Source: Verrucomicrobiota bacterium
GTDB taxonomy: Bacteria; Verrucomicrobiota; Verrucomicrobiia; Limisphaerales; UBA11358
Direction of reading: 5' to 3'
Assembly: GCA_050010675.1 (NCBI GenBank)
Contig: JBEKKN010000001.1
Location: 7,465-71,464 of the forward strand
DNA: 64,000 nucleotides
In this document: piece by piece, positions 4,675 through 46,038 of the stretch
Position numbering within the stretch: position 1 is the first letter of the stretch
Layout: the number at the start of each line of letters is the position of its first letter
Notes under the pieces: generated by a model
What the model saw: the letters and a program-made list of their open reading frames with translations, nothing else
What the model was told of the DNA's origin: nothing
Database searches by the model: none
Program-made: the position numbers and the translations under genes

Positions 4675-4720
4675 ATGGGGTTAACACCCCATTTCATCCG
4701 TCGGTCGCGCGACGTATGGT
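4675..4720 (+). promoter_or_regulatory. candidate promoter, site a: ATGGGGTTAACACCCCAT-N22-TATGGT
   Basis: One of 8 orientation-locked copies of the dyad/ACCCCAT element, with a fixed 22-nt spacer to a -10-like hexamer. ATG 4732 lies 11 nt downstream. The site is a perfect 7+7 dyad. Confidence 0.55.
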
Positions 4721-4731
4721 CGAGGACAATT

Positions 4732-6189
4732 ATGACGACATCGCTTGCCATGCCACCGCCGACTCCAAAAAAAACATCCCTCAAACCCACGAAAACACTG
4801 AAGACCAAATCGTACCAGAGCGTAAACCCTTACAACGGCAAGACCTTCAAGACGTTTGAGGAACTGACCGACCCGCAACTCGAAACCGCCATCCAGACCG
4901 CCGCGACCTGTTTCGCTACCTGGCGGAACAAAACGTTCGCCGAACGCGCGGCCATTGTTGCCAAAGCCGCCGCGCTCATGCGGGCGCACGCGGATGATTT
5001 CGCCAAACCCGTGACGCTCGAAATGGGCAAGCTTATCGGCGAGTCACAGGGTGAAGTCGCTTTGAGCGCGGACATCATTGATTACTACGCCAGGAACGCG
5101 GAACGATTTCTCGCCACGCAAAAGCTCCAACCAGCTTCGGGCGAAGCGGAAATTGTCAGCACTCCGTTCGGTGTGCTCTTTGGCGTGCAACCGTGGAATT
5201 TTCCCTATTACCAGCTGGCGCGTTTTGCCGCGCCCAATCTTATGGCGGGCAACGTCGTGATGGTGAAGCATGCGGGATGCGTGCCGCAATGCGCCATCGC
5301 CTTTGAAAAACTGTGGCGGGATGCGGGTGCGCCGGCCGGGGCCTACACCAATCTGCTGATTTCGTATGAACAGGTGAAGCGCGTGATCGATGATCCGCGC
5401 ATCAAGGGCGTGGCTTTGACTGGCAGCGTCGAAGCCGGAAAAAGGGTCGCCGCGAGAGCCGGACAAAATCTCAAGAAGTCCACCATGGAATTGGGCGGCA
5501 GCGACGCCTTCATCGTGCTCGAGGATGCTGATCTCGACAAAACGGTCAAATGGGCGGTCTGGGCCAAAATGAATAATACCGGCCAGTGCTGTGTCGCGGG
5601 AAAGCGATTCATCGTCGTCGAAAAGCTGGCCGACAAATTTCTGGAGATGTTTCAGGCCGCGCTGGCGGATCTAAAGCCGGGCGATCCGATGGACGAGGCG
5701 ACGTCACTCGGTCCGTTGTCCACCGAAGCGGCCCTGGTGCAGCTGCTGGGTCAAATCAAGGGTGCCGTCGCCAAGGGAGCCAGGTTGTTGATGGGTGGCA
5801 ACCGGATTGATCGGCCTGGTTCATTCATGGAGCCGACGATTCTCACTGATATCAAACCTGCCAATCCCGCGTTCCGGGAGGAATTTTTCGGACCGGTGGC
5901 ACTGTTCTTCCGCGTGAAAAACGAAGATGAAGCCATCGCGCTCGCCAACGATTCGGATTTTGGACTGGGCGGCGCGGTTTTCACCAGGGATGTCGCACGC
6001 GGCAAACGCGTGGCGAATCGCATTGATACCGGCATGGTATTCATCAATCACCCGACCTGGACGACGGCGGATCTGCCGTTCGGTGGCATCAAGAACTCCG
6101 GATATGGACGCGAACTTTCCAGCCTGGGCATTCAGGAATTCGTAAACAAAAAACTGGTGCGCGTGGCTTTGATTGACGACGCCGCCTGA
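4732..6189 (+). CDS. NAD(P)-dependent aldehyde dehydrogenase (succinate-semialdehyde dehydrogenase-like)
   Basis: ALDH family signatures MELGGSDAFIV and NNTGQCCVAGKRF (catalytic Cys). Start set to ATG 4732 (MTTSLAM), downstream of site a. Confidence 0.9.
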   Translation: MTTSLAMPPPTPKKTSLKPTKTLKTKSYQSVNPYNGKTFKTFEELTDPQLETAIQTAATCFATWRNKTFAERAAIVAKAAALMRAHADDFAKPVTLEMGKLIGESQGEVALSADIIDYYARNAERFLATQKLQPASGEAEIVSTPFGVLFGVQPWNFPYYQLARFAAPNLMAGNVVMVKHAGCVPQCAIAFEKLWRDAGAPAGAYTNLLISYEQVKRVIDDPRIKGVALTGSVEAGKRVAARAGQNLKKSTMELGGSDAFIVLEDADLDKTVKWAVWAKMNNTGQCCVAGKRFIVVEKLADKFLEMFQAALADLKPGDPMDEATSLGPLSTEAALVQLLGQIKGAVAKGARLLMGGNRIDRPGSFMEPTILTDIKPANPAFREEFFGPVALFFRVKNEDEAIALANDSDFGLGGAVFTRDVARGKRVANRIDTGMVFINHPTWTTADLPFGGIKNSGYGRELSSLGIQEFVNKKLVRVALIDDAA

Positions 6190-7233
6190 ATGAGTCCCAT
6201 GAAACAGAAAATGAAGGTGGCCGTCGTGGTGCAGTTTGGAAAGCCTTTGGAATTGCAGGAATGGGATATCCCGACTCCGGGACCGGGCCAGATCCTGGTC
6301 AAGACCGAGGCGTGTGGGGTTTGTCACACGGATGTCCATGCTTGGCGCGGCGACTGGCCATTGAAACCGACGCTTCCATTCATTCCCGGTCATGAGGGCA
6401 TTGGACCGGTCGTCGCCGTTGGCGCGGGTGTGACCATCGTGAAAATGGGCGACCGCGTCGGAGTGCCGTGGCTCTACTCGGCGTGCGGTCATTGCGAGTA
6501 TTGTTTGTCCGCTTGGGAGACGGTGTGCGCTGATGCGCAGTTCGGCGGCTACACCCGGAATGGCGGCTTTGCTGAATACATTCTGGCCGACCCAAATTAC
6601 GTTGCCCACATACCGGCCGGGCTAGAATCGACGGAAGCGGCGCCGATCATCTGCGCCGGTCTCACCACGTATAAAGGCATCAAGGAAACCGGAGCGAAAC
6701 CCGGTGAATGGATTGCCATTTCGGGCATAGGCGGCCTCGGGCATCTGGCGATCCAATACGCCAAGGCCATGGGTCTCCACGTTTGTGCCATTGACGTGGA
6801 TGACAGCAAACTCTCCCACGCCAAGTGGCTGGGGGCTGAACTCCTGGTCAATGCCAGGGCGGGCGACCCGGTCGCGGCCGTGAGGAAAGGAACCGGTGGG
6901 GGCGCGCATGGTGTTTTGATCACGGCCCCATCGCTGGGGGCTTTTAAACAGGGCGTGGGCATGACGCGCAAGCGCGGGACATGCGTGCTGAACGGACTGC
7001 CTCCCGGTGAATTTCCCACCCCGCTTTTTGATGTGGTGGCGAACTGCATTACCATCCGCGGTTCATTCGTCGGCACGCGCGCGGATATGGCCGAAGCGCT
7101 CGCCTTCGCGGCCGAGGGCAAGGTCACGGCCGACAACGAACTGCAACCGTTGTCGGCGATCAACCAGGTCTTGGAACGGCTGGAACAGGGCAGGGTGGCA
7201 TCACGCGTGGTCATTAACTTTGCCAAGAGTTGA
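6190..7233 (+). CDS. zinc-dependent alcohol dehydrogenase (AdhP-like)
   Basis: Signatures GVCHTDVHAWRGDW, GHEGIG and the structural-zinc Cys cluster CGHCEYCLSAWETVC. The ATG directly abuts the upstream stop. Confidence 0.9.
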   Translation: MSPMKQKMKVAVVVQFGKPLELQEWDIPTPGPGQILVKTEACGVCHTDVHAWRGDWPLKPTLPFIPGHEGIGPVVAVGAGVTIVKMGDRVGVPWLYSACGHCEYCLSAWETVCADAQFGGYTRNGGFAEYILADPNYVAHIPAGLESTEAAPIICAGLTTYKGIKETGAKPGEWIAISGIGGLGHLAIQYAKAMGLHVCAIDVDDSKLSHAKWLGAELLVNARAGDPVAAVRKGTGGGAHGVLITAPSLGAFKQGVGMTRKRGTCVLNGLPPGEFPTPLFDVVANCITIRGSFVGTRADMAEALAFAAEGKVTADNELQPLSAINQVLERLEQGRVASRVVINFAKS

Positions 7234-7280
7234 ACCGACAAATGATATTTCGTACATGACCTTGAAACTCGCGACGGCGC

Positions 7281-7997
7281 ATGAAACCGAAACCGCTGAT
7301 TAGCATCCAACAGCTGGAAAGGCACCGGAGTGGGCGGGCAGGGTGGTTACGCGCTGCCGTGCTCGGGTCGGACGATGCCATTGTTTCGACCGCGAGCCTG
7401 ATGATTGGGGTCGCGGCGTCCTCCGCTCCCAAGGCTGCCATTTTGGTCGCCGGCGTGGCGGGACTGGTTGCCGGAGCGATGTCCATGGCGGTGGGCGAAT
7501 ATGTTTCGGTCAGCTCGCAACGCGACGCGGAGCAGGCGGACATCGGACTTGAAAGCCGGGAGCTGGCGACGGAACCGCAAGCCGAATTGCAGGAGCTGGC
7601 GATGATTTATGTCAAACGCGGCCTGGAGCAGCAGCTCGCGATGAAAGTTGCAGAGCAACTTAGTGCGCATGACCGGCTCGGCGCCCACATGCGCGATGAG
7701 CTGGGAATTGATCAGGCATCGCTCGCGCGTCCGCTGCAAGCGGCGTGGATATCCGCCGCCAGCTTTGCAGGCTTTGCCGTGGTCCCGATCCTGGGCCTGC
7801 TGATTGCGCCCGCGGCTTTGCGCATTCCACTGATCGCAACGTTCTCGCTGGCGAGTCTCGCGGCGCTGGGTGCGTTTGGCGGTCACCTCGGCGGCGCGCC
7901 GCCCGGTCGTGCCGCGTTACGAGTCACCCTCGGTGGCACCCTGGCCATGGCCGTAACCGCCATCATCGGTCGAATCCTCGGCGTTTCCGTGGGCTGA
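7281..7997 (+). CDS. VIT1/CCC1 family iron/manganese transporter
   Basis: 238 aa. WLRAAVLGSDDAIVSTASLMIGVA, a central soluble helical region, and a C-terminal TM bundle are typical of the VIT family. Confidence 0.8.
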   Translation: MKPKPLISIQQLERHRSGRAGWLRAAVLGSDDAIVSTASLMIGVAASSAPKAAILVAGVAGLVAGAMSMAVGEYVSVSSQRDAEQADIGLESRELATEPQAELQELAMIYVKRGLEQQLAMKVAEQLSAHDRLGAHMRDELGIDQASLARPLQAAWISAASFAGFAVVPILGLLIAPAALRIPLIATFSLASLAALGAFGGHLGGAPPGRAALRVTLGGTLAMAVTAIIGRILGVSVG

Positions 7998-8073
7998 CCG
8001 ATGATGGACTACAAAATGACATCACTTGTGGTCCGCCAATTGGACCAGCCAAGCTCGCAAGAGAATAAAATTT

Positions 8074-8619
8074 ATGAAAACCGAATTTAAAAGGCCGCCG
8101 TCAACCAAACCGGAGCCTGATGTCATCGACGGGACCGCCGCTGCGGAATCGGACGCGCTCCTCAAGGATCTTGCCGAACAAAAGGATTTGCATTTGCGCC
8201 TGGCCGCTGACTTTGAGAATTTCAAGAAGCGCAGCCGGCAGGAAAGCGAGGCCCGGGCGGCCGCACAGAAGGAATCGTTCATCGTTGAGCTGTTGCCAGT
8301 CATTGACAATCTCGAACGGGCGTTGGCCGCCGGGGCGTCGCGAGACCCCGCGCAGTTTCATCAGGGGGTGGAGATGACTTTGAAACAATTGCAGCAATTG
8401 ATCCGTCGGCACGGCGTCGAAAGTGAGGAGATCGTCGGCAAACTGTTCGACCCGCACCGGCATGAGGCCCTTTCACAAGGCCACGACCCGGCCCAACCGG
8501 ACCAAGCCGTCCTCGAAGTGGTTCAGCGTGGTTACCATAAAGGCGCGAAGGTCGTTCGCCCGGCCAAAGTGGTGGTGAATGACCTGACCGCCGCCAAACC
8601 GCACCCTCATGGCCGTTGA
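8074..8619 (+). CDS. grpE: nucleotide exchange factor GrpE
   Basis: LRLAADFENFKKRSRQE and VVQRGYHKGAKVVRPAKVVV are GrpE signatures. Start set to ATG 8074. Confidence 0.9.
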   Translation: MKTEFKRPPSTKPEPDVIDGTAAAESDALLKDLAEQKDLHLRLAADFENFKKRSRQESEARAAAQKESFIVELLPVIDNLERALAAGASRDPAQFHQGVEMTLKQLQQLIRRHGVESEEIVGKLFDPHRHEALSQGHDPAQPDQAVLEVVQRGYHKGAKVVRPAKVVVNDLTAAKPHPHGR

Positions 8620-9607
8620 ATTCAAAGATTATTACCAGGTACTCGGCGTTACGCCCAAGGCGACGGACGACGAAATCAAGAAGGCTTTCCGCACCCTCGC
8701 GCGCAAGTATCATCCCGATGTCGCCAAAGACAAGAAGTCAGCGGAGGCAAAATTCAAAGAAATCAATGAGGCCAATGAGGTCTTGAGCAATCCGGAAAGC
8801 CGCCGGAAGTATGACCAGTTGGGCGCGGATTGGAAGACCGGCGGCCAGTCACGTCCACCGCCGGGTTACCCTGGAGGCCGGTCCGCCGGCCGGGACCATC
8901 ACGACCAGGAAGACGAGTTTCAATTTGAGGGCACCGGTTTCAGTGATTTTTTTGAACAGTTCTTTGGCGGACGCGCCGGCCGATCGCGGGGTGGTTCACC
9001 GTTTGAATCACAAGAATTTTCCAACGGCCATCAGCAACCACGGGCGGCATTGCGAGGACAGGACATTCAAGGCGACATTCTCATCACGCTTGATGAAGTG
9101 CTCAAGGGGGCGATGCGTGCCATTTCGGTGCGGCGCACCAATGCCCGCACCGGTCAGGAAGAAGTGGAAACCTATCAGGTCCGCATCCCGAAAGGGGTTC
9201 AGGCGGGTCAGTCGATCCGGGTTTCAGGCAAAGGTGGCGAGGGGGTGAACGGCGGCAGTGCCGGCGACATTTATTTGCGCGTGCGCTTTGCCCAGCATCC
9301 GGATTGGCAGGTGCGCGGTGCTGATCTGATGGGACATTTGGAGCTGGCCCCGTGGGAAGCGGTGTTGGGAGCGACCGTTCCCATGCGAACCTTGGAAGGC
9401 AGCGTTCTGGTCAAAGTCCCCGCCGGCTTTCAACAGGGACAAAAGCTGCGCGTCCGGGGCAAGGGATTGCCCGCTGGCGGCGTCAAGCGGGGCGATCTGT
9501 ATGTCGAGGCATCCATCCAAGTCCCCTCCCACATAGGCAAGGAGGAAGCTCGTTTGTGGAAGGAGCTGGCGTCCGGATCCGTCTTCGATCCGAGAAAGAC
9601 CACTTGA
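8609..9607 (+). CDS. DnaJ-class co-chaperone lacking the zinc finger (CbpA-like)
   Basis: J domain with HPD (YYQVLGV...ARKYHPDV), a G/F-rich linker and two C-terminal beta domains. There are no CxxCxGxG repeats. It overlaps the grpE end by 11 nt. Confidence 0.85.
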   Translation: MAVEFKDYYQVLGVTPKATDDEIKKAFRTLARKYHPDVAKDKKSAEAKFKEINEANEVLSNPESRRKYDQLGADWKTGGQSRPPPGYPGGRSAGRDHHDQEDEFQFEGTGFSDFFEQFFGGRAGRSRGGSPFESQEFSNGHQQPRAALRGQDIQGDILITLDEVLKGAMRAISVRRTNARTGQEEVETYQVRIPKGVQAGQSIRVSGKGGEGVNGGSAGDIYLRVRFAQHPDWQVRGADLMGHLELAPWEAVLGATVPMRTLEGSVLVKVPAGFQQGQKLRVRGKGLPAGGVKRGDLYVEASIQVPSHIGKEEARLWKELASGSVFDPRKTT

Positions 9608-9622
9608 TTCAAAAGCAGGGTT

Positions 9623-10924
9623 TCAACCGGGGGTCGGAGGATTGCGCCGCACTGTCCACCAGGTGACCAGCCCGGCACCGGCGCAAATTACTGCGCCCAC
9701 CGCAATGGTCCATGGCACGCCCACGGCATGAGCCAGGAATCCAGACTCAATGCCACCCAAAGGCATCATGCCGCCGAACACCAGTGCCCAGATGCCCATC
9801 ACCCGCCCGCGCATGGCGTTGGACACGCTGCCCTGGATGAGCGTGTTGGTGGTCGAGAAATAGAGTATCATCCCCCAACCGCCAACGGCCAGGCACAGGA
9901 GCACCAGCGGATACCAACGCACGATGGCCAACAGCGCCAGCATGGCCGAGAACAACCACAGCCCGCCGAGAATCATCAGCCGCGGCCGCACGCGGCTGCC
10001 GTAGGTTGCCACCGTCAGGGCCCCCAAAAGGGCCCCGAAACCATTGGCGCTGAGCAGGACGCCATAGCCACTTTCGTTCACATGAAGTATGTCGGTTGCA
10101 TAGGCTGGCAGCAGCACCGCATACGACCAGCCAAAGACGCCCACCACGCCAAAGAGCAGCAGCAAAATGCGCACGCGACGATGGCCGACCACATATTTGA
10201 AGCCTTCCAGAATATGCCGCCCCGTTGAATGCGGTTTGGCTTGGGGCACAAACCTGGGCAGACGCATCATCCACAGTCCAATAATGACCGCGATGAAACT
10301 GACGCCGTTCAGGATGAAGCACCAGGTGATGCCGACCGACGCCATAAGGAAACCGGCCACAGCAGGGCCTACGACCCGTGCGCCATTCACGATGGAACTG
10401 TTCAGCGATATGGCGTTCATCAGGTCTTCGTGACTGGTCATCTCAACCATGAACGCTTGCCGTGCCGGCATGTCGAAAGCCATCGCCACACCGCCCACCG
10501 CCGCCAGGACCAGAATATGCCACGTTTGAATGTGGCCACTCCCCACCAGCGCGGCAAATACGAAGGCCGTCAGCATCATCCCAATCTGGGTATAGAAAAT
10601 AACGGTTCGTTTGGGATGTCGGTCGGCGACAGAGCCACCCCACAGGGAAAACACCAGCATGGGCAAAGTTCCGACGGCCGCCACCGTGCCCAGCAACACC
10701 TTCGAGCCGGTCAACTGATAAACCAGCCAGCCTTGAGCGGTGGTCTGCATCCAGGTTCCGATAAGCGATACGAGCTGACCGATGAAGAACAGCCGGAAAT
10801 TTCGATGTTTAAGGGCGGCAAAGGTGTCACGCCACGCCACGTTCCCTGTTGGCCCGGGCCGCACGTTGAATTCTGGCGGAGCCATGGCGGCGGGTGTGGG
10901 TGTGGTAGTTTCTTCAGATGGCAT
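9623..10924 (-). CDS. MFS transporter (EntS/MFS_3-like)
   Basis: 433 aa with about 12 TM segments and a typical MFS layout. It is the only minus-strand gene inside the 4.7-49.5 kb block. Confidence 0.85.
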   Translation of the reverse strand: MPSEETTTPTPAAMAPPEFNVRPGPTGNVAWRDTFAALKHRNFRLFFIGQLVSLIGTWMQTTAQGWLVYQLTGSKVLLGTVAAVGTLPMLVFSLWGGSVADRHPKRTVIFYTQIGMMLTAFVFAALVGSGHIQTWHILVLAAVGGVAMAFDMPARQAFMVEMTSHEDLMNAISLNSSIVNGARVVGPAVAGFLMASVGITWCFILNGVSFIAVIIGLWMMRLPRFVPQAKPHSTGRHILEGFKYVVGHRRVRILLLLFGVVGVFGWSYAVLLPAYATDILHVNESGYGVLLSANGFGALLGALTVATYGSRVRPRLMILGGLWLFSAMLALLAIVRWYPLVLLCLAVGGWGMILYFSTTNTLIQGSVSNAMRGRVMGIWALVFGGMMPLGGIESGFLAHAVGVPWTIAVGAVICAGAGLVTWWTVRRNPPTPG

Positions 10925-11156
10925 CGACGGGGAGATATTAACCGGTTACTTCGTTCCAATCGAGTCTCAGGATGAAAATCCAGACGCCCAGCGACGCATT
11001 TGTAGCTGGATGCGTGTGGCCAGGAAAAGTGGCAATATGCTGGGCATGAAAATGTATTCATTGACCGGGTCCGGACGGCGTATCCGGCATTACTTTGGCA
11101 TATCGCTGACCCGCTTATGCAAACCCATCAGGGAGATGGCTTGAACAAAGTTCACC

Positions 11157-11201
11157 TGGGGGTAACACCCCATGTCACTCGCCTTCGCCGCTGCCTATGA
11201 T
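11157..11201 (+). promoter_or_regulatory. candidate promoter, site b: TGGGGGTAACACCCCAT-N22-TATGAT
   Basis: Same element, same orientation and the same 22-nt spacer. ATG-TGA (11209..11214) lies 7 nt after the hexamer. The SDR gene starts at 11329. Confidence 0.55.
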
Positions 11202-11328
11202 TGTGGCTATGTGAAAATGAGAGATGCGTTTCTCCGCATTCCGAGAGTGACTTATGCGGATTGGCAGCCGAAGGCCAAAACGCAAGAGCAGCTCCGGGAG
11301 GTGCTCCTTGACCATTTAAAAAGCGATT

Positions 11329-12195: not shown

Positions 12196-12231
12196 AAAAA
12201 TCAACCAGCTAATAAACGAAATCCAACCAAA

Positions 12232-14446: not shown

Positions 14447-15430
14447 ATGTATGCGATGGTGCTAAAGAAAATTGGTACTGCCCTTGAATGGACAGAGCTC
14501 ACTGATCCCCAACCGGGACCGGGCGAGATTCGCGTGCAGGTGGCTGCCTGTGGTGTGTGCCGCACCGATCTGCATGTCGTGGATGGCGAATTACCGGACC
14601 CGAAAGTTCCAATCATTCCCGGGCACGAAATTGTTGGCCGGATTGATTTGCTTGGGTCGGGCGTCAAAGAGTTGAAAACGGGTGAGCGGGTCGGCATTCC
14701 CTGGCTTGGTCACACTTGCGGCGTCTGTCCATATTGTATCGGCGGCCAGGAAAATCTGTGCGATCATCCGCTCTTCACCGGTTACACCCGCAACGGCGGC
14801 TTTGCGACCATGGTCATCGCCGATGCCCGTTTTGCCTTTCCCCTCGGCGAAGCCGGCAGGGATGCGGCGCTCGCCCCATTGCTCTGCGCCGGACTGATCG
14901 GCTGGCGTTCCCTGGCCATCGCCGGGAATGGTAAAAACATCGGCCTCTACGGCTTTGGCGCTGCCGCCCACATCCTGGCACAGGTCATTAAATGGCAGGG
15001 CCGATCCACGTTTGCCTTCACGCGACCGGGAGATGTTGCCGCTCAAAACTTCGCTCGAAGCCTCGGCGTAATTTGGGCCGGCGGTTCTGACGAGCTGCCG
15101 CCGGAGCCGTTCGACGCGGCAATTATTTTTGCAACCGTGGGCGATCTCGTGCCGCTGGCATTAAAGGCGGTTCGCAAGGGCGGCCGCGTCGTTTGTGCAG
15201 GCATTCACATGAGCGATATCCCAGGTTTCCCCTATCGGTTGCTTTGGGAAGAGCGGCAGCTTGTATCGGTCGCCAATCTCACGCGTCCGGACGGGATTGA
15301 ATTTCTGCGCCTGGCACCGGAGATGGGAATCGTCACCAACACCACAAGCTATCCACTCAACCAGGCCAACCAGGCACTCGCTGATCTCCGCGCCGGGCGT
15401 TTTGAAGGCGCGGCGGTTCTCGTGCCCTGA
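14447..15430 (+). CDS. zinc-binding alcohol dehydrogenase family protein
   Basis: Signatures [20 protein letters not shown] and the Cys cluster [15 protein letters not shown]. Confidence 0.85.
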
Positions 15431-15460
15431 GTGCGACCGGCATTCGTTTTTTGGCTTACG

Positions 15461-15505
15461 GTCGGGTTTCACCCCATAGCGCCCGCAAGATTCCCAGATG
15501 ATGCT
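15461..15505 (+). promoter_or_regulatory. candidate promoter, site c: GTCGGGTTTCACCCCAT-N22-GATGCT
   Basis: Same element, orientation and spacer. ATG 15513 lies 7 nt after the hexamer and opens a 39-codon ORF. csbD starts at 15697. Confidence 0.55.
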
Positions 15506-15696
15506 TCTGATCATGGATAATAAAAGCTGGCTTGTCGAAGTGGAGGCTGCGGCCCGCATCTGGGCGGGGGCGATCGTCGCGCCCGACTTGATCGTGGGGC
15601 ATACCGTGTGGATGAGCGTGGCCCGCAAATAAAGCAAAGAACACTTTCCCGTCAGGTTGACGGTTAACAAACACAAAACCAAAACGAACGGATTAT

Positions 15697-18234: not shown

Positions 18235-18279
18235 GTCGGGTTATACCCCATAGCAGGCATTTGGTTGTCCAGCGATGCT
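18235..18279 (+). promoter_or_regulatory. candidate promoter, site d: GTCGGGTTATACCCCAT-N22-GATGCT
   Basis: Same element, orientation and spacer. The gene's ATG 18286 lies only 6 nt after the hexamer, which is leaderless geometry. Confidence 0.6.
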
Positions 18280-19574: not shown

Positions 19575-19976
19575 ATGAAAACAAATCCACTCAAAGAAGG
19601 TGCGCTGACTGAAAAATCCGCCGGTCTCGGCACGGTTACCCCCAAGATGGTACGGGCCCGGGCGGCGGAGTTGGCGGTCATTGACGGTCACTTGTCGAGC
19701 GACGCGACCAAATCTCATTATGCGCGGGCCAAACGGGAGCTGACCGGCGAACCGGATATGGATCCGAAAGATGCGATTCTTGAATCCGCACCCGAGGCTG
19801 AACGCTGGGATCCGGTTCCTGGCTCCACGGGGCAAAAAGTTCCAGCAACTCCGAGCGAAGATGAAGACGATGAAGGGCGAAGTGATAAGGAAAGGCTCGT
19901 CGAAGGCGGAATCGCCGAAGCAGAGATTGAGCAAAGTTTCCAAGCCGCCAAAGCTGCTGCCAAAAAGGATTCATGA
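19575..19976 (+). CDS. hypothetical acidic protein
   Basis: 133 aa. VTPKMVRARAAELAVIDGH...ARAKRELTGE followed by an acidic tail (SEDEDDEGRSDKERLVEGGIAEAE). Its stop overlaps the next start (ATGA). Confidence 0.55.
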   Translation: MKTNPLKEGALTEKSAGLGTVTPKMVRARAAELAVIDGHLSSDATKSHYARAKRELTGEPDMDPKDAILESAPEAERWDPVPGSTGQKVPATPSEDEDDEGRSDKERLVEGGIAEAEIEQSFQAAKAAAKKDS

Positions 19977-20527
19977 GTCCGCCGGCAGTTCACGTTCCGC
20001 AGACGGGACCGGTCGCACCGGTTCCGGATGTGCCGGCTTTAAGCTTCGCCCCGGCTCAATCGCTTTATGCACTCATCGAACAACAGCCGTTTTTTAAGGG
20101 ATTAAACCCCCAGCAGCTTCAACGGCTCGCCGGTTCGGCCTTGAAAATGAAATTTGAAACCGGTGCGAGCATTTTTGAGGAGGGAAGCCCCGCCAACCGG
20201 TTTTATCTGATATTAACCGGCCGGGTGGAGCTGGCATCGGAAATGGAAGACCGGAATGTGATTCCCATTCAAACTCTTGGGCCGGGCGACGACTTGGGTT
20301 GGTCCTGGCTTTTTCCTCCCTATTACACACATTTCAGTGCGCGCGCCTTGGAGCCAACCACCACGATATTTTTCTATGGGACCAGGCTGCGTGAACAGTG
20401 CGAACAAGACCACGAACTGGGCTACCAGGTCATGAAGCGAATCGCCGAGGTGGCGACCCAATCGCTCCGGGCCACCCAGCGACGTTTAATGCAATACATT
20501 GACAAAAATATTCCCGAGCAACCATGA
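19973..20527 (+). CDS. cyclic nucleotide-binding domain protein (stand-alone, no HTH)
   Basis: FFKGLNPQQLQRLAGSALKMKFETGASIFEEGSPANRFYLILTGRVEL is a cNMP-binding beta-roll. At 184 aa it is too short to carry a CRP-type DNA-binding domain. Confidence 0.8.
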   Translation: MSPPAVHVPQTGPVAPVPDVPALSFAPAQSLYALIEQQPFFKGLNPQQLQRLAGSALKMKFETGASIFEEGSPANRFYLILTGRVELASEMEDRNVIPIQTLGPGDDLGWSWLFPPYYTHFSARALEPTTTIFFYGTRLREQCEQDHELGYQVMKRIAEVATQSLRATQRRLMQYIDKNIPEQP

Positions 20528-21706: not shown

Positions 21707-21752
21707 ATGGGGTGTTCACCCCATTGTTTACGGTGGCCAAAAGCGACACTTT
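21707..21752 (+). promoter_or_regulatory. candidate promoter, site e: ATGGGGTGTTCACCCCAT-N22-CACTTT
   Basis: Perfect 7+7 dyad with the same orientation and spacer. The gene's ATG 21759 lies 6 nt after the hexamer. The hexamer is a weak -10; GACACT lies 2 nt upstream. Confidence 0.5.
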
Positions 21753-30537: not shown

Positions 30538-30588
30538 AACCCTCTGCTGGATTCATTTTCGGCGGCCGCTGTTCTTCGATTTTCCGCG

Positions 30589-30633
30589 GTAGGGTTTTAC
30601 CCCATGGCGAAGCCGCCCCCGTCGGCACAAATT
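30589..30633 (+). promoter_or_regulatory. candidate promoter, site f: GTAGGGTTTTACCCCAT-N22-CAAATT
   Basis: Same element, orientation and spacer. The hexamer is weaker. A 103-nt leader with a GAAGGAG RBS precedes ATG 30737. Confidence 0.45.
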
Positions 30634-34640: not shown

Positions 34641-34646
34641 CAGCTT

Positions 34647-35170: not shown

Positions 35171-35216
35171 ATGGGGTGAATACCCCATAGTGCCGGCCGA
35201 GGGTTCGATTTATAGT
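35171..35216 (+). promoter_or_regulatory. candidate promoter, site g: ATGGGGTGAATACCCCAT-N22-TATAGT
   Basis: Perfect 7+7 dyad with the same orientation and spacer, and the best -10 of the set. ATG 35225 lies 8 nt after the hexamer and opens only 9 codons. The DUF3300 gene starts at 35262. Confidence 0.6.
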
Positions 35217-35261
35217 GACGCGTGATGGGAAACATTGGCCGGTTCAATTCCTGATATCGCG

Positions 35262-36386: not shown

Positions 36387-36397
36387 TTTTAATCCCC

Positions 36398-39200: not shown

Positions 39201-39231
39201 CGGCAGCAAATACCATGAACCATCTCCGAAT

Positions 39232-40374
39232 ATGAAATACAGCGGCATCCTGCGGATCGGCTTCAAGCTGCTGGTCAACGATCGGGGCAAGTTCTTTGCC
39301 CTGTTGATCGGGATCACCTTTGCCGTGTTCCTGATGATGGAAATGACCGCCATGTTCGCCGGCATCCTCAACCGGGCCTTTTCGCCGGTCACCAATATCG
39401 GTGCCGCGATGTGGATCATGGATCCGGCGGTCAATACGGCCACCAGTCCCATCCCCCTGCCGGGATATGTGCTCGACGCGGCGCGCAGCATGGACGGCGT
39501 CAGTTACGCCGTGCCGCTCTTCATGGGCGGTGCGCTGGTCAAGCTGGCCAGCGGCACCTATCAGGGGGTCAATGTAGTCGGTCTGGACGACAGCAGTCTG
39601 TTTGGCCGGCCCGAACTGGAACAGGGCAATATTCAGGACATCTATGCCGACAACACCTTCTTCGTGGTGGATGACGCTGAATTCTCCAAGCTGGGGAACC
39701 CGAAGATCGGCACGACCTTCGAACTCAATGATCACCGTGGCCGGATCGTAGGCATCGCCCGGGTCGCCGCCAACGGACTGAATGGCGTTCCCACGCTGTA
39801 CACCACTTACAACCGTGCGATTGAATACCTGCCGTCGACGCGCTTCACCATGTCCTATGTTCTGGTGCAGCCGAAAAATGACGCGGCGGTGCCCGGCATC
39901 AAGCAACAAGTCGCCAGGCTTGGCTATGTCGCCTTCACCAAGGATGAATTCAACAACCGGATCACCCACTATTACACCTACCAGACCGGGATTGGCACCA
40001 ACATCCTGTTGATGACCATCATCGCGTTTATTGTCGGACTGTCCATCTCCGGCCAGACTTTCTATACCTTCATCCTCGAAAACCTCGAAAAATTTGGCGC
40101 GCTGAAAGCCATCGGGGCCAAGGGGCGCGAGCTGGTTTACATGATCCTCTTCATGGCGTTCTTCACGGCCATGATCGGCTATGGGCTGGGCATCGGTCTG
40201 GTGACGTTGATGATTTCGATCGCCCGCTACCGGCTGCCCAACTACGCGGCGATGATCACCTTTGGAAACCTGGGACTCGCCTTCGGCATGGTCCTGCTCA
40301 TTGCCGGCATCTCAAGCTATATTGGCATACGCAAGGTTCTCAAGATCGAGCCATTCGACATCTTTCGGGGGTAG
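39232..40374 (+). CDS. FtsX-like ABC permease (DevC type)
   Basis: An N-terminal TM segment, a large periplasmic domain and a C-terminal FtsX-type 3-TM bundle. Start set to ATG 39232 (MKYSGILRIGFKLLVND). Confidence 0.8.
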   Translation: MKYSGILRIGFKLLVNDRGKFFALLIGITFAVFLMMEMTAMFAGILNRAFSPVTNIGAAMWIMDPAVNTATSPIPLPGYVLDAARSMDGVSYAVPLFMGGALVKLASGTYQGVNVVGLDDSSLFGRPELEQGNIQDIYADNTFFVVDDAEFSKLGNPKIGTTFELNDHRGRIVGIARVAANGLNGVPTLYTTYNRAIEYLPSTRFTMSYVLVQPKNDAAVPGIKQQVARLGYVAFTKDEFNNRITHYYTYQTGIGTNILLMTIIAFIVGLSISGQTFYTFILENLEKFGALKAIGAKGRELVYMILFMAFFTAMIGYGLGIGLVTLMISIARYRLPNYAAMITFGNLGLAFGMVLLIAGISSYIGIRKVLKIEPFDIFRG

Positions 40375-40376
40375 CC

Positions 40377-41870
40377 ATGAACCATTCCATGAGAACTTTA
40401 ATGTTTCAGCTCCAAAGCGTAACCGGACCTACCATCGTATCACTGGCATGCGTGGTTCTGTTTGCCGGCTGCAGCTTCGCGCCAAAATATTCGGAACCAT
40501 CGGTTCAAACGCCGGCCGCTTTCAAGGAATTGACGCCGGCGCAATCATCGGAAACGGATGGCTGGAAAGCCGCCAGGCGAGACGACGACCGGCTTCGCGG
40601 CCAGTGGTGGAAAATGTTTAACGAGCCGGAGTTGAACGCCTTTGAAAGTCAGGTGAACGTTTCCAACCAGACGGTCGCCGTTGCACTGGCCAATTTTCTC
40701 GCCGCCCGGGCGGTGGTGAAACAAGCCCGATCGCAGTATTTCCCATCCGTGACCGCCAACCCCTCCGTCACGGAATCACGGCAACAGGTAACTTCATCAA
40801 GTTCTTCGCCGGCCTCTTCCACGTTCACCGAATACTCGCTGCCCTTTGATGCCTCCTGGGAGCCGGATTTTTGGGGACGCATCCGCAACACCGTGAAGGC
40901 TAATTCGCTGGAAGCCCAAGCCACGCTGGCTGATTTGGAAAACGTGCGCCTGACCATTCAGGCGGAATTGGCGGTGGACTATTTTCAGCTGCGCGTGCTG
41001 GACGCGCAGAAACAGCTGTTGGCTGCGACGGTGACCGCTTTTCAGGAATCACTCAAGCTGACCCAGGATCAGTCTGACACGGGCCTGGCATCCGATCAGG
41101 ACGTCGCGCTGGCCGAAACGCAACTTAACACCGCGCTCGCGCAGGCCACCGACCTCGGCATCCAGCGCGCGCAACTCGAACACGCCATCGCGACGCTGCT
41201 CGGCCAGCCGGCTTCAACCTTTGCCATCGCACCCCGTTCGCTGACCACACAACCCATCGCCATTCCCTTCGGCGTTCCGTCGCAATTGCTCGAACGCCGT
41301 CCGGACATCGCCGCCGCCGAACGCCGCGTCGCGGAGGCCAACGCGCAAATTGGCGTGGCGCGCGCGGCTTATTTTCCGACCATCACGTTGAGCGGTGCGG
41401 TGGGCTACCAAAGCACCTCCATACAAAATCTGTTTTCCGCGCCGGGTCTGGTCTGGTCCGTCGGCGCGACGCTGGCGCAAACCCTGTTTGATGGCGGCTT
41501 GCGCAAAGCCGTCACCGAGCAGTCCCGGGCAATCTACCAGGGGACGGTCGCGAATTACCGTCAGACCGTGCTCACCGCCTTTCAGGAAGTCGAAGACAAT
41601 TTATCAGCACTGCGAATCCTGTCGCAGGAACGGGAACAACAGGATGCCGCTGTCGCCTCGTCGCAACGCTACTTGAGGCTCGCCGACGTCCGCTACCAAT
41701 CCGGCATTGATATTTATCTCAATGTGATCATCGCGCAAACCGCGCTGTTGAACAATCAACGAATGGCGCTGAACCTCCAGATGGAACAACTGACGGCAAG
41801 CGTCCAGTTGATCAAGGCATTGGGCGGCGGCTGGGAGGTTTCGTCGGGAGCGACCGCGTCCATTCCTTGA
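40377..41870 (+). CDS. outer membrane efflux lipoprotein (NodT/TolC family)
   Basis: Lipobox LFAGCSF and two OEP repeats (LNVSNQTVAVALANFLAARA..., QLLERRPDIAAAERRVAEANAQIGVARAAYFP). Confidence 0.9.
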   Translation: MNHSMRTLMFQLQSVTGPTIVSLACVVLFAGCSFAPKYSEPSVQTPAAFKELTPAQSSETDGWKAARRDDDRLRGQWWKMFNEPELNAFESQVNVSNQTVAVALANFLAARAVVKQARSQYFPSVTANPSVTESRQQVTSSSSSPASSTFTEYSLPFDASWEPDFWGRIRNTVKANSLEAQATLADLENVRLTIQAELAVDYFQLRVLDAQKQLLAATVTAFQESLKLTQDQSDTGLASDQDVALAETQLNTALAQATDLGIQRAQLEHAIATLLGQPASTFAIAPRSLTTQPIAIPFGVPSQLLERRPDIAAAERRVAEANAQIGVARAAYFPTITLSGAVGYQSTSIQNLFSAPGLVWSVGATLAQTLFDGGLRKAVTEQSRAIYQGTVANYRQTVLTAFQEVEDNLSALRILSQEREQQDAAVASSQRYLRLADVRYQSGIDIYLNVIIAQTALLNNQRMALNLQMEQLTASVQLIKALGGGWEVSSGATASIP

Positions 41871-41883
41871 TCCAAAACCAATT

Positions 41884-42978
41884 ATGAATACGAACCTGAT
41901 CCCTATCGCAAAGAAACTGGTCGCCGACAACAAAGGTTTGCTGGCGATGGATGAAAGCAATCCCACCTGCAACCGACGATTCGCGAAGCTCAACATTCCG
42001 CAGACGCTGGAAGCCCGGCGTGCCTATCGTGAACTCATCTTAACCACGCCCGGTCTCGGCGAAAGCATCAGCGGCGTGATTCTCTACGACGAGACCATTC
42101 GCCAGTCGAAAAAAGATGGCACCACCTTTCTTAAAGTCCTTGGTGACGCGGGCATCATCCCCGGCATCAAGGTGGATACCGGGGCCAAGGACCTGGCCGC
42201 GCATCCCGGGGAAAAAATCACCGAAGGTCTGGATGGCCTGCGCGATCGGCTTAAGGAATACTTTCAAATGGGCGCGCGGTTTGCCAAGTGGCGCGCGGTG
42301 ATTGCCATCGGCAATGGCATTCCCAGTCAAAGTTGCATCGAGGCCAACGCGCACGCGTTGGCGCGTTACGCCGCGTTGTGCCAGGAAGCCGGACTGGTCC
42401 CCGTCGTCGAGCCGGAAGTGCTCATGGACGGAGACCATACCCTGGAGCGGTGCGGCGAGGTGACGGAGCAGGTCTTGCGAACCGTTTTCAACCAGCTGAA
42501 TTCCCAGCGCGTGGGGCTGGAGGGCATGATCCTCAAACCCAACATGGTGCTGCCGGGATTCACCTGCCCCCCGCACCAGGAAGTCAAAGAAGTGGGCGTC
42601 GGCGAACAGCAATATCAAGTGAGGCTGACCGACCGTCAGCCGGACGAGGGCCAAGATATCGACGAGGTCGCCAACATCACGGTGAAGAGTCTGTGGCGAA
42701 CCGTTCCCGCGGCGGTTCCGGGGATTGCCTTTTTGTCCGGCGGACAATCCGCCGAACTGGCCTCGGCCCGTTTGAATACCATGAATCTTCGATTCAAGTC
42801 GCAACTGCCATGGGCACTGTCATTTTCCTTTGCCCGTGCCATCCAGCAGCCGGCTTTGGAAATCTGGCAGGGCAAAGAGGCCAACGTGCTTGCGGCTCAG
42901 CAAGCTTTGCTTCATCGTGCCCGATGCAACCGTGCCGCGCGCCGGGGTGAATACACTGTTGCGATGGAAAGGACATGA
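41884..42978 (+). CDS. fba: class I fructose-bisphosphate aldolase
   Basis: NKGLLAMDESNPTCNRRF, IPGIKVDTG, the Schiff-base region ILKPNMV, and FLSGGQS. Confidence 0.9.
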   Translation: MNTNLIPIAKKLVADNKGLLAMDESNPTCNRRFAKLNIPQTLEARRAYRELILTTPGLGESISGVILYDETIRQSKKDGTTFLKVLGDAGIIPGIKVDTGAKDLAAHPGEKITEGLDGLRDRLKEYFQMGARFAKWRAVIAIGNGIPSQSCIEANAHALARYAALCQEAGLVPVVEPEVLMDGDHTLERCGEVTEQVLRTVFNQLNSQRVGLEGMILKPNMVLPGFTCPPHQEVKEVGVGEQQYQVRLTDRQPDEGQDIDEVANITVKSLWRTVPAAVPGIAFLSGGQSAELASARLNTMNLRFKSQLPWALSFSFARAIQQPALEIWQGKEANVLAAQQALLHRARCNRAARRGEYTVAMERT

Positions 42979-43997
42979 GCATGACAACAAAGAGACAGCT
43001 CGTGGATGAATCGCCTTTGTATCCACTGCGATTCGAACCGATCTATCAATATCGGCTCTGGGGTGGCCGACGTTTGGCCAATTTCCTCTCCGCTCCGCTG
43101 CCCGGTGATGGTCCCATCGGCGAAGCCTGGCTGTTGAGCGACCGCGAGGACCATCCGAGCCGTGTCGCCGATGGACCACTTAAGGGACGAAGCATCGGAC
43201 AATTGCTTCATCAGTGGCCCGAACAGATGCTGGGAAAACTGGCCGGGCAGTTCCGTCGGTTCCCGCTGCTGCTGAAATTTCTCGACGTGCGAGAAACGCT
43301 CTCGGTCCAGGTGCATCCATCGGATCAGCAGACCCAATATATCCCCGCGGGCGAGACCGGGAAGACCGAAGCCTGGGTGGTGCTGGAGGCGGGGACAAAA
43401 AGCCGCATCTACGCGGGCCTCAAGCCTGCCACCACAACCGACACCCTACGGCAGACGCTCGCGAACGGAACGGTGGCTGACCACCTCGCAGGCTTCACTC
43501 CGAAGCCCGGCGACGGAATTTTCATACCGGCTGGAACCGTTCATTCGTTGGGCGACGTGGTGGTTTTTGAAGTGCAGGAAAACAGCGACGTGACATTCCG
43601 GCTTTTCGACTGGAACCACGTTGACGCCAGGACCGGCCAGCCCCGGCCTCTGCAAGTTGATCAGGCGATGGCCTGCATTAATTTTGCGCAAGGTGCAATT
43701 GGTCCGGTGGTGCCCATGTTGGATGAAGTAAAGCCGGTGTCGCGCGAGCGGCTCTTTGATTGTGAACAGTTCGGTTTGTGGCGGTTCGGCGCAGAATCGC
43801 CATTTGGAGTTGGTGCCGAAAGAACCCCGCGGGTGCTGGTGTGTCTCACCGGTGACGGTCAGGTGGAACACGATGGCGCCAATTACGCCATCGGAAAGGG
43901 GGATGTGCTGCTCTTGCCGGCCATGGTTGGAGCATGTTTGTGCCGGCCGCGCGGTGCCATCAGCTTGTTGGAGATTTCATTGCCGGAAGGAAAATAA
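42975..43997 (+). CDS. manA: type I phosphomannose isomerase
   Basis: WGGRRL, LLKFLDVRETLSVQVHPSD and ETGKTEAWVVLEA. The start overlaps the fba stop. Confidence 0.85.
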   Translation: MSMTTKRQLVDESPLYPLRFEPIYQYRLWGGRRLANFLSAPLPGDGPIGEAWLLSDREDHPSRVADGPLKGRSIGQLLHQWPEQMLGKLAGQFRRFPLLLKFLDVRETLSVQVHPSDQQTQYIPAGETGKTEAWVVLEAGTKSRIYAGLKPATTTDTLRQTLANGTVADHLAGFTPKPGDGIFIPAGTVHSLGDVVVFEVQENSDVTFRLFDWNHVDARTGQPRPLQVDQAMACINFAQGAIGPVVPMLDEVKPVSRERLFDCEQFGLWRFGAESPFGVGAERTPRVLVCLTGDGQVEHDGANYAIGKGDVLLLPAMVGACLCRPRGAISLLEISLPEGK

Positions 43998-44001
43998 CCA
44001 C

Positions 44002-44784
44002 ATGAAAAGACTCATCGTTTTCGATCTGGATGGCACGCTGGCCGAAAGCAAAGCTTCGCTCGATGCCGAGATGGCCAGACTGCTCACCGCTCTGCTGGGA
44101 ATTGTGAAGGTGGCGGTGATTTCCGGCGGCGATTGGCCACAATTTGAGAAACAAGTGCTCTCCAATCTGCCCCACGATGAACACCTGAAGAACCTGTCCC
44201 TGCTCCCCACCTGTGGAACAAAGTTCTACCAATACGCCGGAGATTGGAAAAAAATCTATTCAGAAGATTTCACTACGGATCAAAAAGGGAAAATCATCAA
44301 CTCTCTAAAAAAAGCGCTCGAAGCAGCGGGCTTCAAGGTCGAAAAGGTCTGGGGAGAAACCATTGAGGATCGGGGAAGCCAGATTACGTTTTCGGCTTTG
44401 GGTCAGCAGGCGCCCATCGCAGAAAAGAAAAAATGGGACCCCGATTTCAGCAAGCGCAGGAAGATCAAGGCACTCCTTGATAAACTGATCCCTGAGTTTT
44501 CCGTGCGCCTGGGAGGCACGACCTCCGTTGACGTCACCAAGCCGGGCATTGATAAAGCCTACGGGATTCGGAAACTCCGTGACATCCTTGGCATTGCCAT
44601 TGATGAGATGATTTTTATCGGCGATGCGTTGTTTCCCGGCGGAAACGACTATCCGGCCAAAGAAGCAGGAGTTGTGTCCATCCGGGTCCGGGATCCCAAT
44701 GAATCGAAACGAGTGATTGAAGCCATTGTCGCTTGTCTGGGTGGCGTTCAACCCACAAAACCTCGTGCGGAGAAGACCGGATGA
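44002..44784 (+). CDS. HAD-IIB hydrolase, phosphomannomutase-like
   Basis: IVFDLDGTLAESKASLD, VAVISGGDW and FIGDALFPGGNDYPA resemble the eukaryotic-type PMM / HAD-IIB fold. Start set to ATG 44002. Confidence 0.7.
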   Translation: MKRLIVFDLDGTLAESKASLDAEMARLLTALLGIVKVAVISGGDWPQFEKQVLSNLPHDEHLKNLSLLPTCGTKFYQYAGDWKKIYSEDFTTDQKGKIINSLKKALEAAGFKVEKVWGETIEDRGSQITFSALGQQAPIAEKKKWDPDFSKRRKIKALLDKLIPEFSVRLGGTTSVDVTKPGIDKAYGIRKLRDILGIAIDEMIFIGDALFPGGNDYPAKEAGVVSIRVRDPNESKRVIEAIVACLGGVQPTKPRAEKTG

Positions 44785-45905
44785 GCGGCTTTCAATTACA
44801 GCGCCTGGGAATGTTGATGGAGCCGGAGCCGGGCAACCCGCAGGAGATTGAAGGCGTCCTGAATTCCGCGGCTGCTCGCGGTCAGGACGGCAGGCTTTAC
44901 CTGTTTCCGAGACTAGTTGCCAAGGGCAACTATTCGCGCATCGGCATCGCCCGCGTAAAATTCAACGAAGCCGGCGACCCGTCCGGAGTCGAGCGACTCG
45001 GCATCGCGCTTGAGCCGGAAGCGGATTACGAGCGGCGTTCTGACGGCCGTGGCGGATGCGAGGATGCCCGGGTTACCTTTGTCGAGCCGCTTCAGCATTA
45101 CGTCATGACTTATACGGCGCTTTCGCCGGGAGGACCCCGGATCGCCCTGGCCATGTCGGAGGATTTGTTCCACTGGGAGCGGATCGGGCTGGCAATCTTT
45201 GAACCCTTTCAAGGCATTGATTTCGTCCACGTGGACAACAAGGATGCCAGCATCTTCCCCGTCGCCATTCCCAATCACGCCGGAAAAATGCAGCTGGCCA
45301 TGCTCCATCGTCCGCTTTTTCCCGGCACCCGCCCCGAGGAAACCGCCTGCCTGGACGAGTCCCGGATGGTGGATCGCGAGCATGAAAGCATCTGGATTTC
45401 CTACTGTCCAATGCCGCCTGAGGGCCTGGCGCCGCATCGGCCCGGCTTGTTCAACTCGCATCATCGGCTGGCCAGTCCGGTCTCAGCCTGGGAAAAGCTG
45501 AAAATCGGCGGCGGCACTCCACCCATTCTAACCAAGCATGGCTGGCTGATTCTTTACCACGGCGTGAGCAAAATGGCGGAACCAGACAGCAACGGACACC
45601 CGCTCCGCTACTCGGCCGGGGTGATGGTTCTGTCAAAAGAGCATCCGCAGGAAATCCGCTATCGTTCCACGGACCCGGTGTTGACGCCGGAGTTGCCACA
45701 GGAACGCCACGGGACCATCGCCAACGTCGTGTTCCCCACCGGCATCGACCGGCGCGACGATCTCGGCACGCCCGACCGCTTTGACATTTATTACGGGATG
45801 GCCGACAACCGGATTGGTGTGGCGCGTCTCGACCTGCCGGAACATCTGCCACCAGGAGCAGCCGCCGACGGGCCGTCGCCAAAATCAAGAGAGACTATGT
45901 GGTGA
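44781..45905 (+). CDS. GH130 family glycosidase/beta-mannoside phosphorylase-like protein
   Basis: LNSAAARGQDGRLYLFPR, CEDARVTF, NKDASIFP, YYGMADNRIGVARL and a five-bladed beta-propeller pattern. The ATG overlaps the previous stop. Confidence 0.75.
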   Translation: MSGFQLQRLGMLMEPEPGNPQEIEGVLNSAAARGQDGRLYLFPRLVAKGNYSRIGIARVKFNEAGDPSGVERLGIALEPEADYERRSDGRGGCEDARVTFVEPLQHYVMTYTALSPGGPRIALAMSEDLFHWERIGLAIFEPFQGIDFVHVDNKDASIFPVAIPNHAGKMQLAMLHRPLFPGTRPEETACLDESRMVDREHESIWISYCPMPPEGLAPHRPGLFNSHHRLASPVSAWEKLKIGGGTPPILTKHGWLILYHGVSKMAEPDSNGHPLRYSAGVMVLSKEHPQEIRYRSTDPVLTPELPQERHGTIANVVFPTGIDRRDDLGTPDRFDIYYGMADNRIGVARLDLPEHLPPGAAADGPSPKSRETMW

Positions 45906-45993
45906 AGACCTCATAAGCGGTTTCGGCATGTCCTCTTTATATCTGTCGCACGCGGTTACGTAAATGTTGTTTCCATTTTTGCAGCCATCCATA

Positions 45994-46038
45994 GTCGGGT
46001 TACACCCCATAGGACATGGCCAGCCTTGGGCGTAGGCT
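45994..46038 (+). promoter_or_regulatory. candidate promoter, site h: GTCGGGTTACACCCCAT-N22-TAGGCT
   Basis: Same element, orientation and spacer. The in-frame ATG 46047 lies 8 nt after the hexamer. Confidence 0.55.

Follow-up and report, generated by a model that had tools for sequence, protein, structure and literature searches.

In a 64-kb stretch of DNA from a soil or freshwater member of the Verrucomicrobiota (hereafter the window, meaning this whole stretch), eight gene units of a stress and carbon-reserve island are each preceded by the same element, a dyad with the core TRGGGT-N3/4-ACCCCA that stands 22 nt upstream of a conserved hexamer. We consider it very probable, from its sequence and recurrence, that this arrangement is a promoter architecture in which the dyad lies at a fixed distance upstream of the -10 element. 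With a probability of roughly 65% by our estimate, an autoregulated NarL-type two-component response regulator binds the dyad, which serves as a class-II activator operator near -43. In related genomes, the two-component operon itself belongs to the regulon. A broader proposal, which we put forward only tentatively, is that the general stress and dormancy response of Verrucomicrobia subdivision 3 might be run by a single autoregulated NarL-type two-component regulator in place of an alternative sigma factor, acting largely on leaderless mRNAs through an 18-20-bp operator that hardly varies and is set at -43 to the exact base pair, and that in some lineages it might be fused to KaiC-KaiB.

A pattern search of the window for GGGT-N3/4-ACCCCAT returned exactly eight sites on the + strand, all of them intergenic, just as a first-pass annotation of this DNA had described; the chance expectation is 0.09 matches. 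Counted on both strands there are 11 matches, a number equalled by none of 100 shuffles, since sites a, e, and g are perfect palindromes and match the - strand too. Bare ACCCCAT occurs elsewhere in the window in two copies only (37222-, 51838-), both without a dyad, and a scan allowing 1-2 mismatches gave no convincing additional site, which agrees with the earlier statement that the window holds no further full copy. The identical 22-nt spacer between the dyad and a hexamer was likewise found at 8/8 sites. Five of these hexamers had been said to fit TAnnnT, but we found four (a, b, g, and h); the signature shared by all eight is nAnnnT, in which the second base is A and the sixth is T.

The architecture recurs in related genomes. 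The closest relatives of the RNB RNase encoded in unit c (73-89% identity) belong to metagenome-assembled genomes (MAGs) of Verrucomicrobia subdivision 3 / Limisphaerales, the group in which we place the host, and the motif gave 17 site reads in 140 kb of Verrucomicrobia-like RNB loci and none in 1.07 Mb of loci from other phyla retrieved with the same protein. A metagenome scan with the pattern GGTNGGGTTNNACCCCAT, from which the hexamer was left out, added 120 contigs, and all loci pooled yielded 220 non-redundant site reads from related genomes and metagenomes. When the 165 sites of the N3 form were aligned, information downstream of the dyad was flat except for G at +2 (78%), A at +24 (78%), and T at +28 (77%), the latter two carrying about 0.9-1.0 bit each. 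Among the 160 independent N3 sites outside the window, nAnnnT followed at a spacer of 22 in 69% and of 23 in 15%, compared with about 5% for any other spacer and 4% on the mirror side. The 22-nt spacing and orientation lock thus reappear in relatives, where the first-pass annotation had suggested looking for them. Clustering of the first genes behind the sites, 127 in number, gave 75 unrelated clusters, so the spacing signal is not one orthologous promoter counted repeatedly. Where orthologous promoters could be compared (those of site f are found in loci L091 and L123), the upstream flanks diverge and the dyad and the position of the hexamer are kept.

Start codons point to the role of the hexamer. 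The distance from the hexamer to the ATG of the first long open reading frame (ORF) shows a sharp peak at 6-7 nt (17/128, with 0-2 in adjoining bins), which indicates that the hexamer is the -10 element and that many of the mRNAs are leaderless. In the window, the gap is 6 nt at sites d and e, 7 nt at site c (measured to a 39-aa ORF), 8 nt at site h, and 11 nt at site a, and sites b, f, and g have longer leaders. We infer that transcription starts about 7 nt past the hexamer, which would place ACCCCAT at -41..-35, the conserved G at -33, and the dyad center at -43 (N3) or -43.5 (N4). A proper -35 element is lacking: the hexamer at a 17-bp spacing from the -10 has the pattern T-(A/G)-G-C-n-A, a vestige of TTGACA at most, and amounts to a T-n-G abutting the dyad. 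Matches to canonical sigma-70 promoters in the block of eight units were not enriched over shuffles, and site b alone was detected. The suggestion that these sites are regulon promoters is strongly supported by the comparative spacing and by the start-codon peak.

The dyad occurs in two forms. About three-quarters of the site reads have the N3 form, GGTMGGGTTnnACCCCAT, and about one-quarter have the N4 form, an 8-2-8 palindrome ATGGGGTG-WW-CACCCCAT. Overall the element is an inverted repeat with two-fold symmetry, as expected of a NarL/FixJ operator (16-20 bp), with an imperfect distal half in the N3 form. In that form (for example, window positions 15460-15477 and 30588-30605) the proximal half is (C)ACCCCAT and the distal half is nearly always GGT(A/C)GGGTT, not ATGGGGT, so that the perfect half-site is always promoter-proximal. 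Palindromes read both ways gave about 50% for A24/T28, which indicates that palindromic sites fire in one direction only. The two forms are also interchangeable between orthologous promoters: the N3 form of window site d corresponds to N4 forms in L001 and L004, and a similar swap separates L120 from L111 and L200. Whether the dyad was read by a dimeric activator or by an unusual sigma factor had been left undecided in the first-pass annotation. The activator is now favored by the palindromes, the N3/N4 interchange, the sigma-70-like -10, and the enrichment among the targets of a NarL-type operon and not of a sigma gene, and the sigma factor is disfavored.

This operon emerged from the genes behind the motif, which we summarized by the 25 most frequent Pfam families per set. 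Among the families listed, the first genes behind good sites were most often BON/OsmY-like (9), HisKA_3 kinases (8 of 119), and OsmC (6), followed by PRC (4), CsbD (4), and YflT (3). DUF883, dodecin, ALDH, PLD/cardiolipin synthase, ferritin-like, and YceI genes also lie behind the motif, and these families fit the general-stress and carbon-reserve content proposed earlier for the units of the window. HisKA_3 kinases thus rank second among the first genes (with 16 cluster members altogether), and at genes 2-4 the top families were Response_reg (10), GerE (8), and HisKA_3 (8). REC-GerE was the only DNA-binding family seen repeatedly among the 254 downstream proteins; matches to Sigma70_r4_2 and HTH_23 are weak cross-matches of the same GerE helix-turn-helix (HTH), and neither sigma region 2 nor any other transcription-factor family appeared among the families listed. 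The candidate regulator is a conserved 225-227-aa response regulator of the NarL/FixJ family, with a receiver (REC) domain and a GerE HTH, encoded with a HisKA_3 histidine kinase whose sensor is RsbU_N-like or PAS. A PDB search placed it closest to VraR (E 3e-43; about 45% identity over REC + HTH), followed by NarL (3e-29) and DevR (6e-24), with DesR also among the closest solved structures. By tblastn, orthologues with more than 50% identity are present in 14 motif-carrying loci, namely 13 of the 120 motif-selected contigs and L009 from the RNB search. The regulator is abundant and highly conserved in metagenomes, where the source labels read NarL/FixJ response regulator of Verrucomicrobiota.

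For a reciprocal test, contigs were picked by the regulator protein alone. The motif lies directly upstream of the kinase-regulator operon in 3/3 independent contigs (L201; L202, with its duplicate L203; and L204), and these contigs carry extra copies in front of BON, DUF883, HBM-like, and receiver genes. All 11 of their sites are intergenic and co-oriented with the next gene. The motif at the regulator's own operon in relatives implies positive autoregulation. Distant NarL-type systems of other phyla (L041 and L032) were uninformative on a related dyad, as their inspected upstream regions read as coding.

Taken together, these observations suggest a model in which a phosphorylated NarL-type homodimer would bind the dyad at about -43 and recruit, in class-II fashion, a sigma-70-type holoenzyme to promoters that have a -10 (nAnnnT) but no real -35. 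Transcription would then begin about 7 nt past the hexamer, often at the A of the ATG, giving a leaderless mRNA. The regulator would activate its own operon, forming a positive-feedback switch, and in its phosphorylated state would turn on a general-stress, dormancy, and carbon-reserve regulon whose units are dispersed or gathered in islands. That this regulator is the binder, that it activates rather than represses, and that it is encoded in the source genome is what we infer from the comparisons above.

The kinase-regulator operon has further features of its own. It usually opens with a kinase paralogue of 232-252 aa (L200 7853-8548 (-), L202 8135-8833, L204 7550-8308) that has an RsbU_N-like N terminus and a HisKA_3 (DHp) region without an ATPase domain and that may be a pathway modulator or phosphatase. 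KaiC-KaiB genes lie directly behind the motif in three loci (L201 6302-8382; L006 16591-18722; L163 3-373). In L201 they share one operon with a PAS-HisKA_3 kinase and the NarL-type regulator, and in L006 a variant site, ATGGGTGTAACACCCCAT-N22-CATCCT, stands about 240 nt upstream of kaiC, which suggests that a Kai module is wired to the stress switch in some lineages. As a separate observation, L009 (JANMVW010000180.1, 3131-4789), labelled Acidobacteriota, carries a Verrucomicrobia-like RNB gene (73% identity), a kinase-regulator pair, and the motif, here about 150 bp upstream of the kinase gene and pointing away from it in a divergent arrangement; the contig may be mis-binned.

Several points weigh against the NarL-type regulator as the binder. 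The N3 form is markedly asymmetric, with distal GGTAGGGTT in place of ATGGGGTG, and a simple symmetric homodimer does not explain this. At DevR-type promoters of Mycobacterium tuberculosis there are always at least two tandem boxes, in helical phase (PMC3177182). Two to four such boxes act cooperatively there, whereas the sites here are single, high-information sites with no conserved second upstream box (<0.2 bit at -39..-18 in N3 sites). Site a has a good Shine-Dalgarno sequence (GAGGA) upstream of its predicted start. The base frequencies at -17..-9 are inflated, as these bases were part of the metagenome search pattern, although the same GGT(A/C)GGGTT left arm is seen at the sites of the window, at those of the RNB loci, and in the loci picked by the regulator. 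A summary of the 25 most frequent Pfam families could also miss a DNA-binding family that is rarer. Finally, neither the regulator nor the kinase gene was found in the 64-kb window by tblastn, and the two-component operon could be merely another target of a different factor.

This last point leads to the strongest rival, which we nevertheless regard as unlikely: the same architecture with the dyad bound by a different transcription factor, either an activator or a repressor that occludes the -35 region, and with the NarL-type operon as just one target. It draws on the absence of the regulator gene from the window and on the Pfam summaries just mentioned. The motif precedes regulators of two or more types, the 225-227-aa protein and, in L117 and L189, paralogues that share about 40% identity with it, so that a position downstream of the motif does not identify the binder, and the asymmetric N3 form would also suit a two-HTH monomer of the MarA/SoxS type or a heterodimer. 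However, REC-GerE is the sole DNA-binding family that recurs downstream, and the motif is always present on contigs picked by the regulator. A repressor would not need spacing to the -10 that is exact to 1 bp and would have no good -35 to repress, and the palindromic N4 sites argue against a two-HTH monomer. A CRP/FNR operator read by the cNMP-binding protein of unit d was also considered and rejected, because that protein matches PF00027 only and has no HTH or other DNA-binding domain.

It is improbable that ACCCCAT and the upstream GGGT form an unusually long -35-type element of an alternative sigma factor, be it an extracytoplasmic function (ECF) sigma, such as the one encoded in the window, or an RpoH- or SigB-like one. 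In favor of this reading, the proximal half ACCCCAT hardly varies and is locked in orientation, the word CCCCAT is similar to the sigma-32 -10 and GGGTAT-like words to the SigB/SigF -10, an ECF sigma/anti-sigma pair is present in the window, and stress regulons elsewhere are sigma driven. However, the 22-nt gap between ACCCCAT and nAnnnT exceeds the 16-18 nt usual for sigma-70-family promoters, nothing is conserved in the spacer or 13-17 nt upstream of the dyad, so that neither the sigma-32 nor the SigB layout fits, and the -10 is sigma-70-like. Perfect 18-bp palindromes and the interchange of N3 and N4 suggest a dimer, and no Sigma70_r2 appears among the downstream families listed. Reading CCCCATnT as a sigma-32 -10 was rejected since no CTTGAA-like -35 lies 13-15 nt upstream and GGGT stands 3-4 nt upstream instead; the conserved nAnnnT 22 nt downstream, with start codons after it, opposes this reading as well. 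A GGGTAT-like word as a SigB/SigF -10 failed for want of a conserved GTTT-type -35 upstream, and an ECF/SigB-type promoter with elements 14-17 nt apart does not fit a 22-nt spacer without internal conservation. The window ECF sigma was rejected as the reader because its operon (52868-54072) lacks the motif and the promoter geometry is wrong.

Least probable by far is that the dyad has nothing to do with promoters and is instead structural or repetitive, for instance a REP-like repeat, a hairpin in the RNA, or the terminator of the unit before it. It is an inverted repeat in intergenic DNA, and N4 forms fold to about -11 kcal/mol, but N3 forms fold weakly, a T-run follows none of the sites (which, with the positional logic, excluded an intrinsic terminator or REP hairpin), the spacing to the -10 is fixed with start codons 6-7 nt past the hexamer, dyad and hexamer position persist where flanks diverge, and Rfam gave no match.

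The activator principle to which we assign the dyad is well established. In LuxR/TraR-type regulators (lux box) and other NarL-family class-II activators, such as NarL (7-2-7), EvgA, RcsB, and GerE, dimers of GerE-type HTH domains sit on inverted repeats of 18-20 bp that overlap the -35 or take its place at about -42, upstream of a sigma-70 -10. The sites described here would share this layout. They differ in their unrelated sequence, in the predicted signal, phosphorylation by a HisKA_3 kinase in place of an acyl-homoserine lactone, and in tolerating a 1-bp variation in half-site spacing. VraR/LiaR show the highest similarity to the candidate regulator and are likewise encoded in autoregulated three-gene operons with a HisKA_3 kinase, but they belong to Firmicutes, control small envelope-stress regulons through other operators, and work with a membrane-embedded, intramembrane-sensing kinase. 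The marbox of MarA/SoxS/Rob is also an asymmetric element of about 20 bp over the -35, in one orientation and at a fixed distance from the -10. Its readers, however, are AraC-family two-HTH monomers on degenerate boxes, whereas one-quarter of the sites here are perfect palindromes and no AraC-family gene is associated with them. In content, the regulon resembles those of SigB (Firmicutes), RpoS (Gammaproteobacteria), and EcfG (Alphaproteobacteria), whose targets include CsbD, YflT/GsiB-like, OsmC, BON/OsmY, DUF883/ElaB, PRC-barrel, and dodecin proteins and enzymes of glycogen and overflow metabolism. In place of a sigma-specific -35/-10 pair, it has an operator and a housekeeping-type -10; the patterns GGAAC-N16/17-CGTT and GTTT-N14-GGGTAT are absent from the site alignment.

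An instructive parallel is DevR/DosR of M. tuberculosis (OsdR in Streptomyces). DevR is an autoregulated NarL-family regulator with a HisKA_3 kinase and an 18-bp G-rich palindromic box, and the proximal of its boxes, centered at -42.5, is 33-34 bp away from the start site (PMC3177182). Like it, the candidate system of the relatives combines a NarL-family REC-GerE regulator with a HisKA_3 kinase and has its own box on the regulator operon. The DevR/DosR box is an 18-20-bp G-rich palindrome, GGGACT..AGTCCC, and the N4 form here also reads GGG-N8-CCC; relative to predicted starts, the block here ends at about -33/-35, where the DevR box ends 33-34 bp from the start, and is centered at -43/-43.5. 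The two also have in common a stress/dormancy gene set and frequent leaderless mRNAs. The regulators, however, are not orthologues, VraR being closer to the candidate than DevR. The half-site is GGGAC there and GGGGT here, where there are two spacing classes (N3 and N4), and the kinase sensor is GAF there and RsbU_N-like or PAS here. The phylum also differs, and the regulon here comprises BON, OsmC, CsbD, PRC, phosphoketolase, and glycogen genes.

While the principle of a class-II NarL-family activator is already known, the operator, the regulon, and the phylum are new. Full-text literature searches for the words of the motif and for stress regulons or promoters in Verrucomicrobia returned nothing relevant, just unrelated primer matches. 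Subdivision 3 is abundant in peat, soil, and freshwater; to our knowledge, this group (Limisphaerales/Pedosphaera-like) is almost uncultured and its transcriptional regulation essentially undescribed. The motif offers a handle of about 25-30 bits by which a stress, dormancy, and carbon-reserve regulon may be read straight from MAGs. From it, start sites and leaderless genes can be predicted, unannotated small ORFs among them, and a sensor kinase and a regulator are nominated. The motif also suggests that a phylum can base its general stress response on a two-component activator instead of an alternative sigma factor. If true, the Kai fusion would imply that, in a soil phylum that does not photosynthesize, a stress regulon is gated by a timer or by energy.

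The sites, the units behind them, and other features of the window are collected in Table 1. Pfam annotation confirmed the gene content given earlier for the eight units, with one addition: a 39-aa hydrophobic ORF, MDNKSWLVEVEAAARIWAGAIVAPDLIVGHTVWMSVARK, missing from the earlier list, heads unit c ahead of CsbD. It is conserved behind the orthologous promoter in L001 and L094, its opening codons are conserved in L126 and L162, and it is probably an unannotated leaderless small membrane protein. The block had also been described as co-directional, which holds for the most part; an MFS transporter gene between units a and b runs on the - strand.

Table 1. Dyad sites, gene units, and other features of the window (the last position of each dyad is the T of ACCCCAT; the unit d genes are those of the first-pass annotation, confirmed by Pfam, and the other units follow Pfam).
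Feature	Extent (strand)	Dyad	Hexamer after N22	First gene and context	Unit
Site a	4675..4720 (+)	palindromic N4, ATGGGGTTAACACCCCAT, 4675-4692	TATGGT, 4715-4720	ALDH, start codon 4732	ALDH-ADH-VIT-GrpE-DnaJ-like
Site b	11157..11201 (+)	TGGGGGTAACACCCCAT, 11157-11173	TATGAT, 11196-11201	SDR, start 11329; divergent intergenic region with MFS gene (-); leader ~120 nt	SDR-YceI-Nnr-ADH
Site c	15461..15505 (+)	N3, GTCGGGTTTCACCCCAT, 15461-15477	GATGCT, 15500-15505	39-aa ORF	39-aa ORF-CsbD-dodecin-small ORF-RNB RNase
Site d	18235..18279 (+)	N3, GTCGGGTTATACCCCAT, 18235-18251	GATGCT, 18274-18279	DUF2934 protein, ATG 18286; predicted leaderless	two DUF2934 proteins, DUF5069, two small proteins, cNMP-binding protein
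Site e	21707..21752 (+)	palindromic N4, ATGGGGTGTTCACCCCAT, 21707-21724	CACTTT, 21747-21752	ABC ATPase, ATG 21759; predicted leaderless	ABC-2 exporter-RpiB-GlgP-HAD-AckA-Pgi
Site f	30589..30633 (+)	N3, GTAGGGTTTTACCCCAT, 30589-30605	CAAATT, 30628-30633	PRC-barrel protein, 30737	PRC-barrel protein-phosphoketolase-SpoIIAA-like STAS protein
Site g	35171..35216 (+)	palindromic N4, ATGGGGTGAATACCCCAT, 35171-35188	TATAGT, 35211-35216	DUF3300	DUF3300-DUF2950-ABC/MFP/FtsX/OMF exporter-Fba-ManA-PMM-like HAD-GH130
Site h	45994..46038 (+)	N3, GTCGGGTTACACCCCAT, 45994-46010	TAGGCT, 46033-46038	P-type ATPase, ATG 46047; predicted leaderless or nearly so	P-type (E1-E2) cation ATPase
MFS_3/MFS_1 transporter gene	9623-10924 (-)				between units a and b
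Terminator-like hairpin with T-run	15428-15446				directly upstream of site c
39-aa ORF	15513-15632 (+)				unit c
cNMP-binding protein gene	19973-20527				unit d
Mini-ORF of 9 codons (MGNIGRFNS*)	35225-35254 (+)				ahead of DUF3300 gene of unit g
P-type ATPase gene, 1133 aa	46047-49448 (+)				unit h
148-aa ORF	49464-49910 (+)				end of block
zf-HC2 anti-sigma factor gene	52868-53437 (-)				
ECF sigma factor gene	53434-54072 (-)				

Some of these features deserve comment in their own right. The mini-ORF behind site g starts 8 nt past the hexamer and may be a chance occurrence or a leaderless upstream ORF. The ECF sigma/anti-sigma pair, with no GGGT..ACCCCAT motif upstream, probably has no part in the regulon. 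Scanning the window for Rfam families and tRNAs gave no match. The 148-aa ORF at the end of the block matches the PPK2 profile over just its first 67 positions out of 229, as if a polyphosphate kinase 2 gene had been truncated or degraded. The unit h ATPase has a C-terminal extension with a DUF2934 motif (residues 930-964), a short domain that it has in common with the two DUF2934 proteins of unit d.

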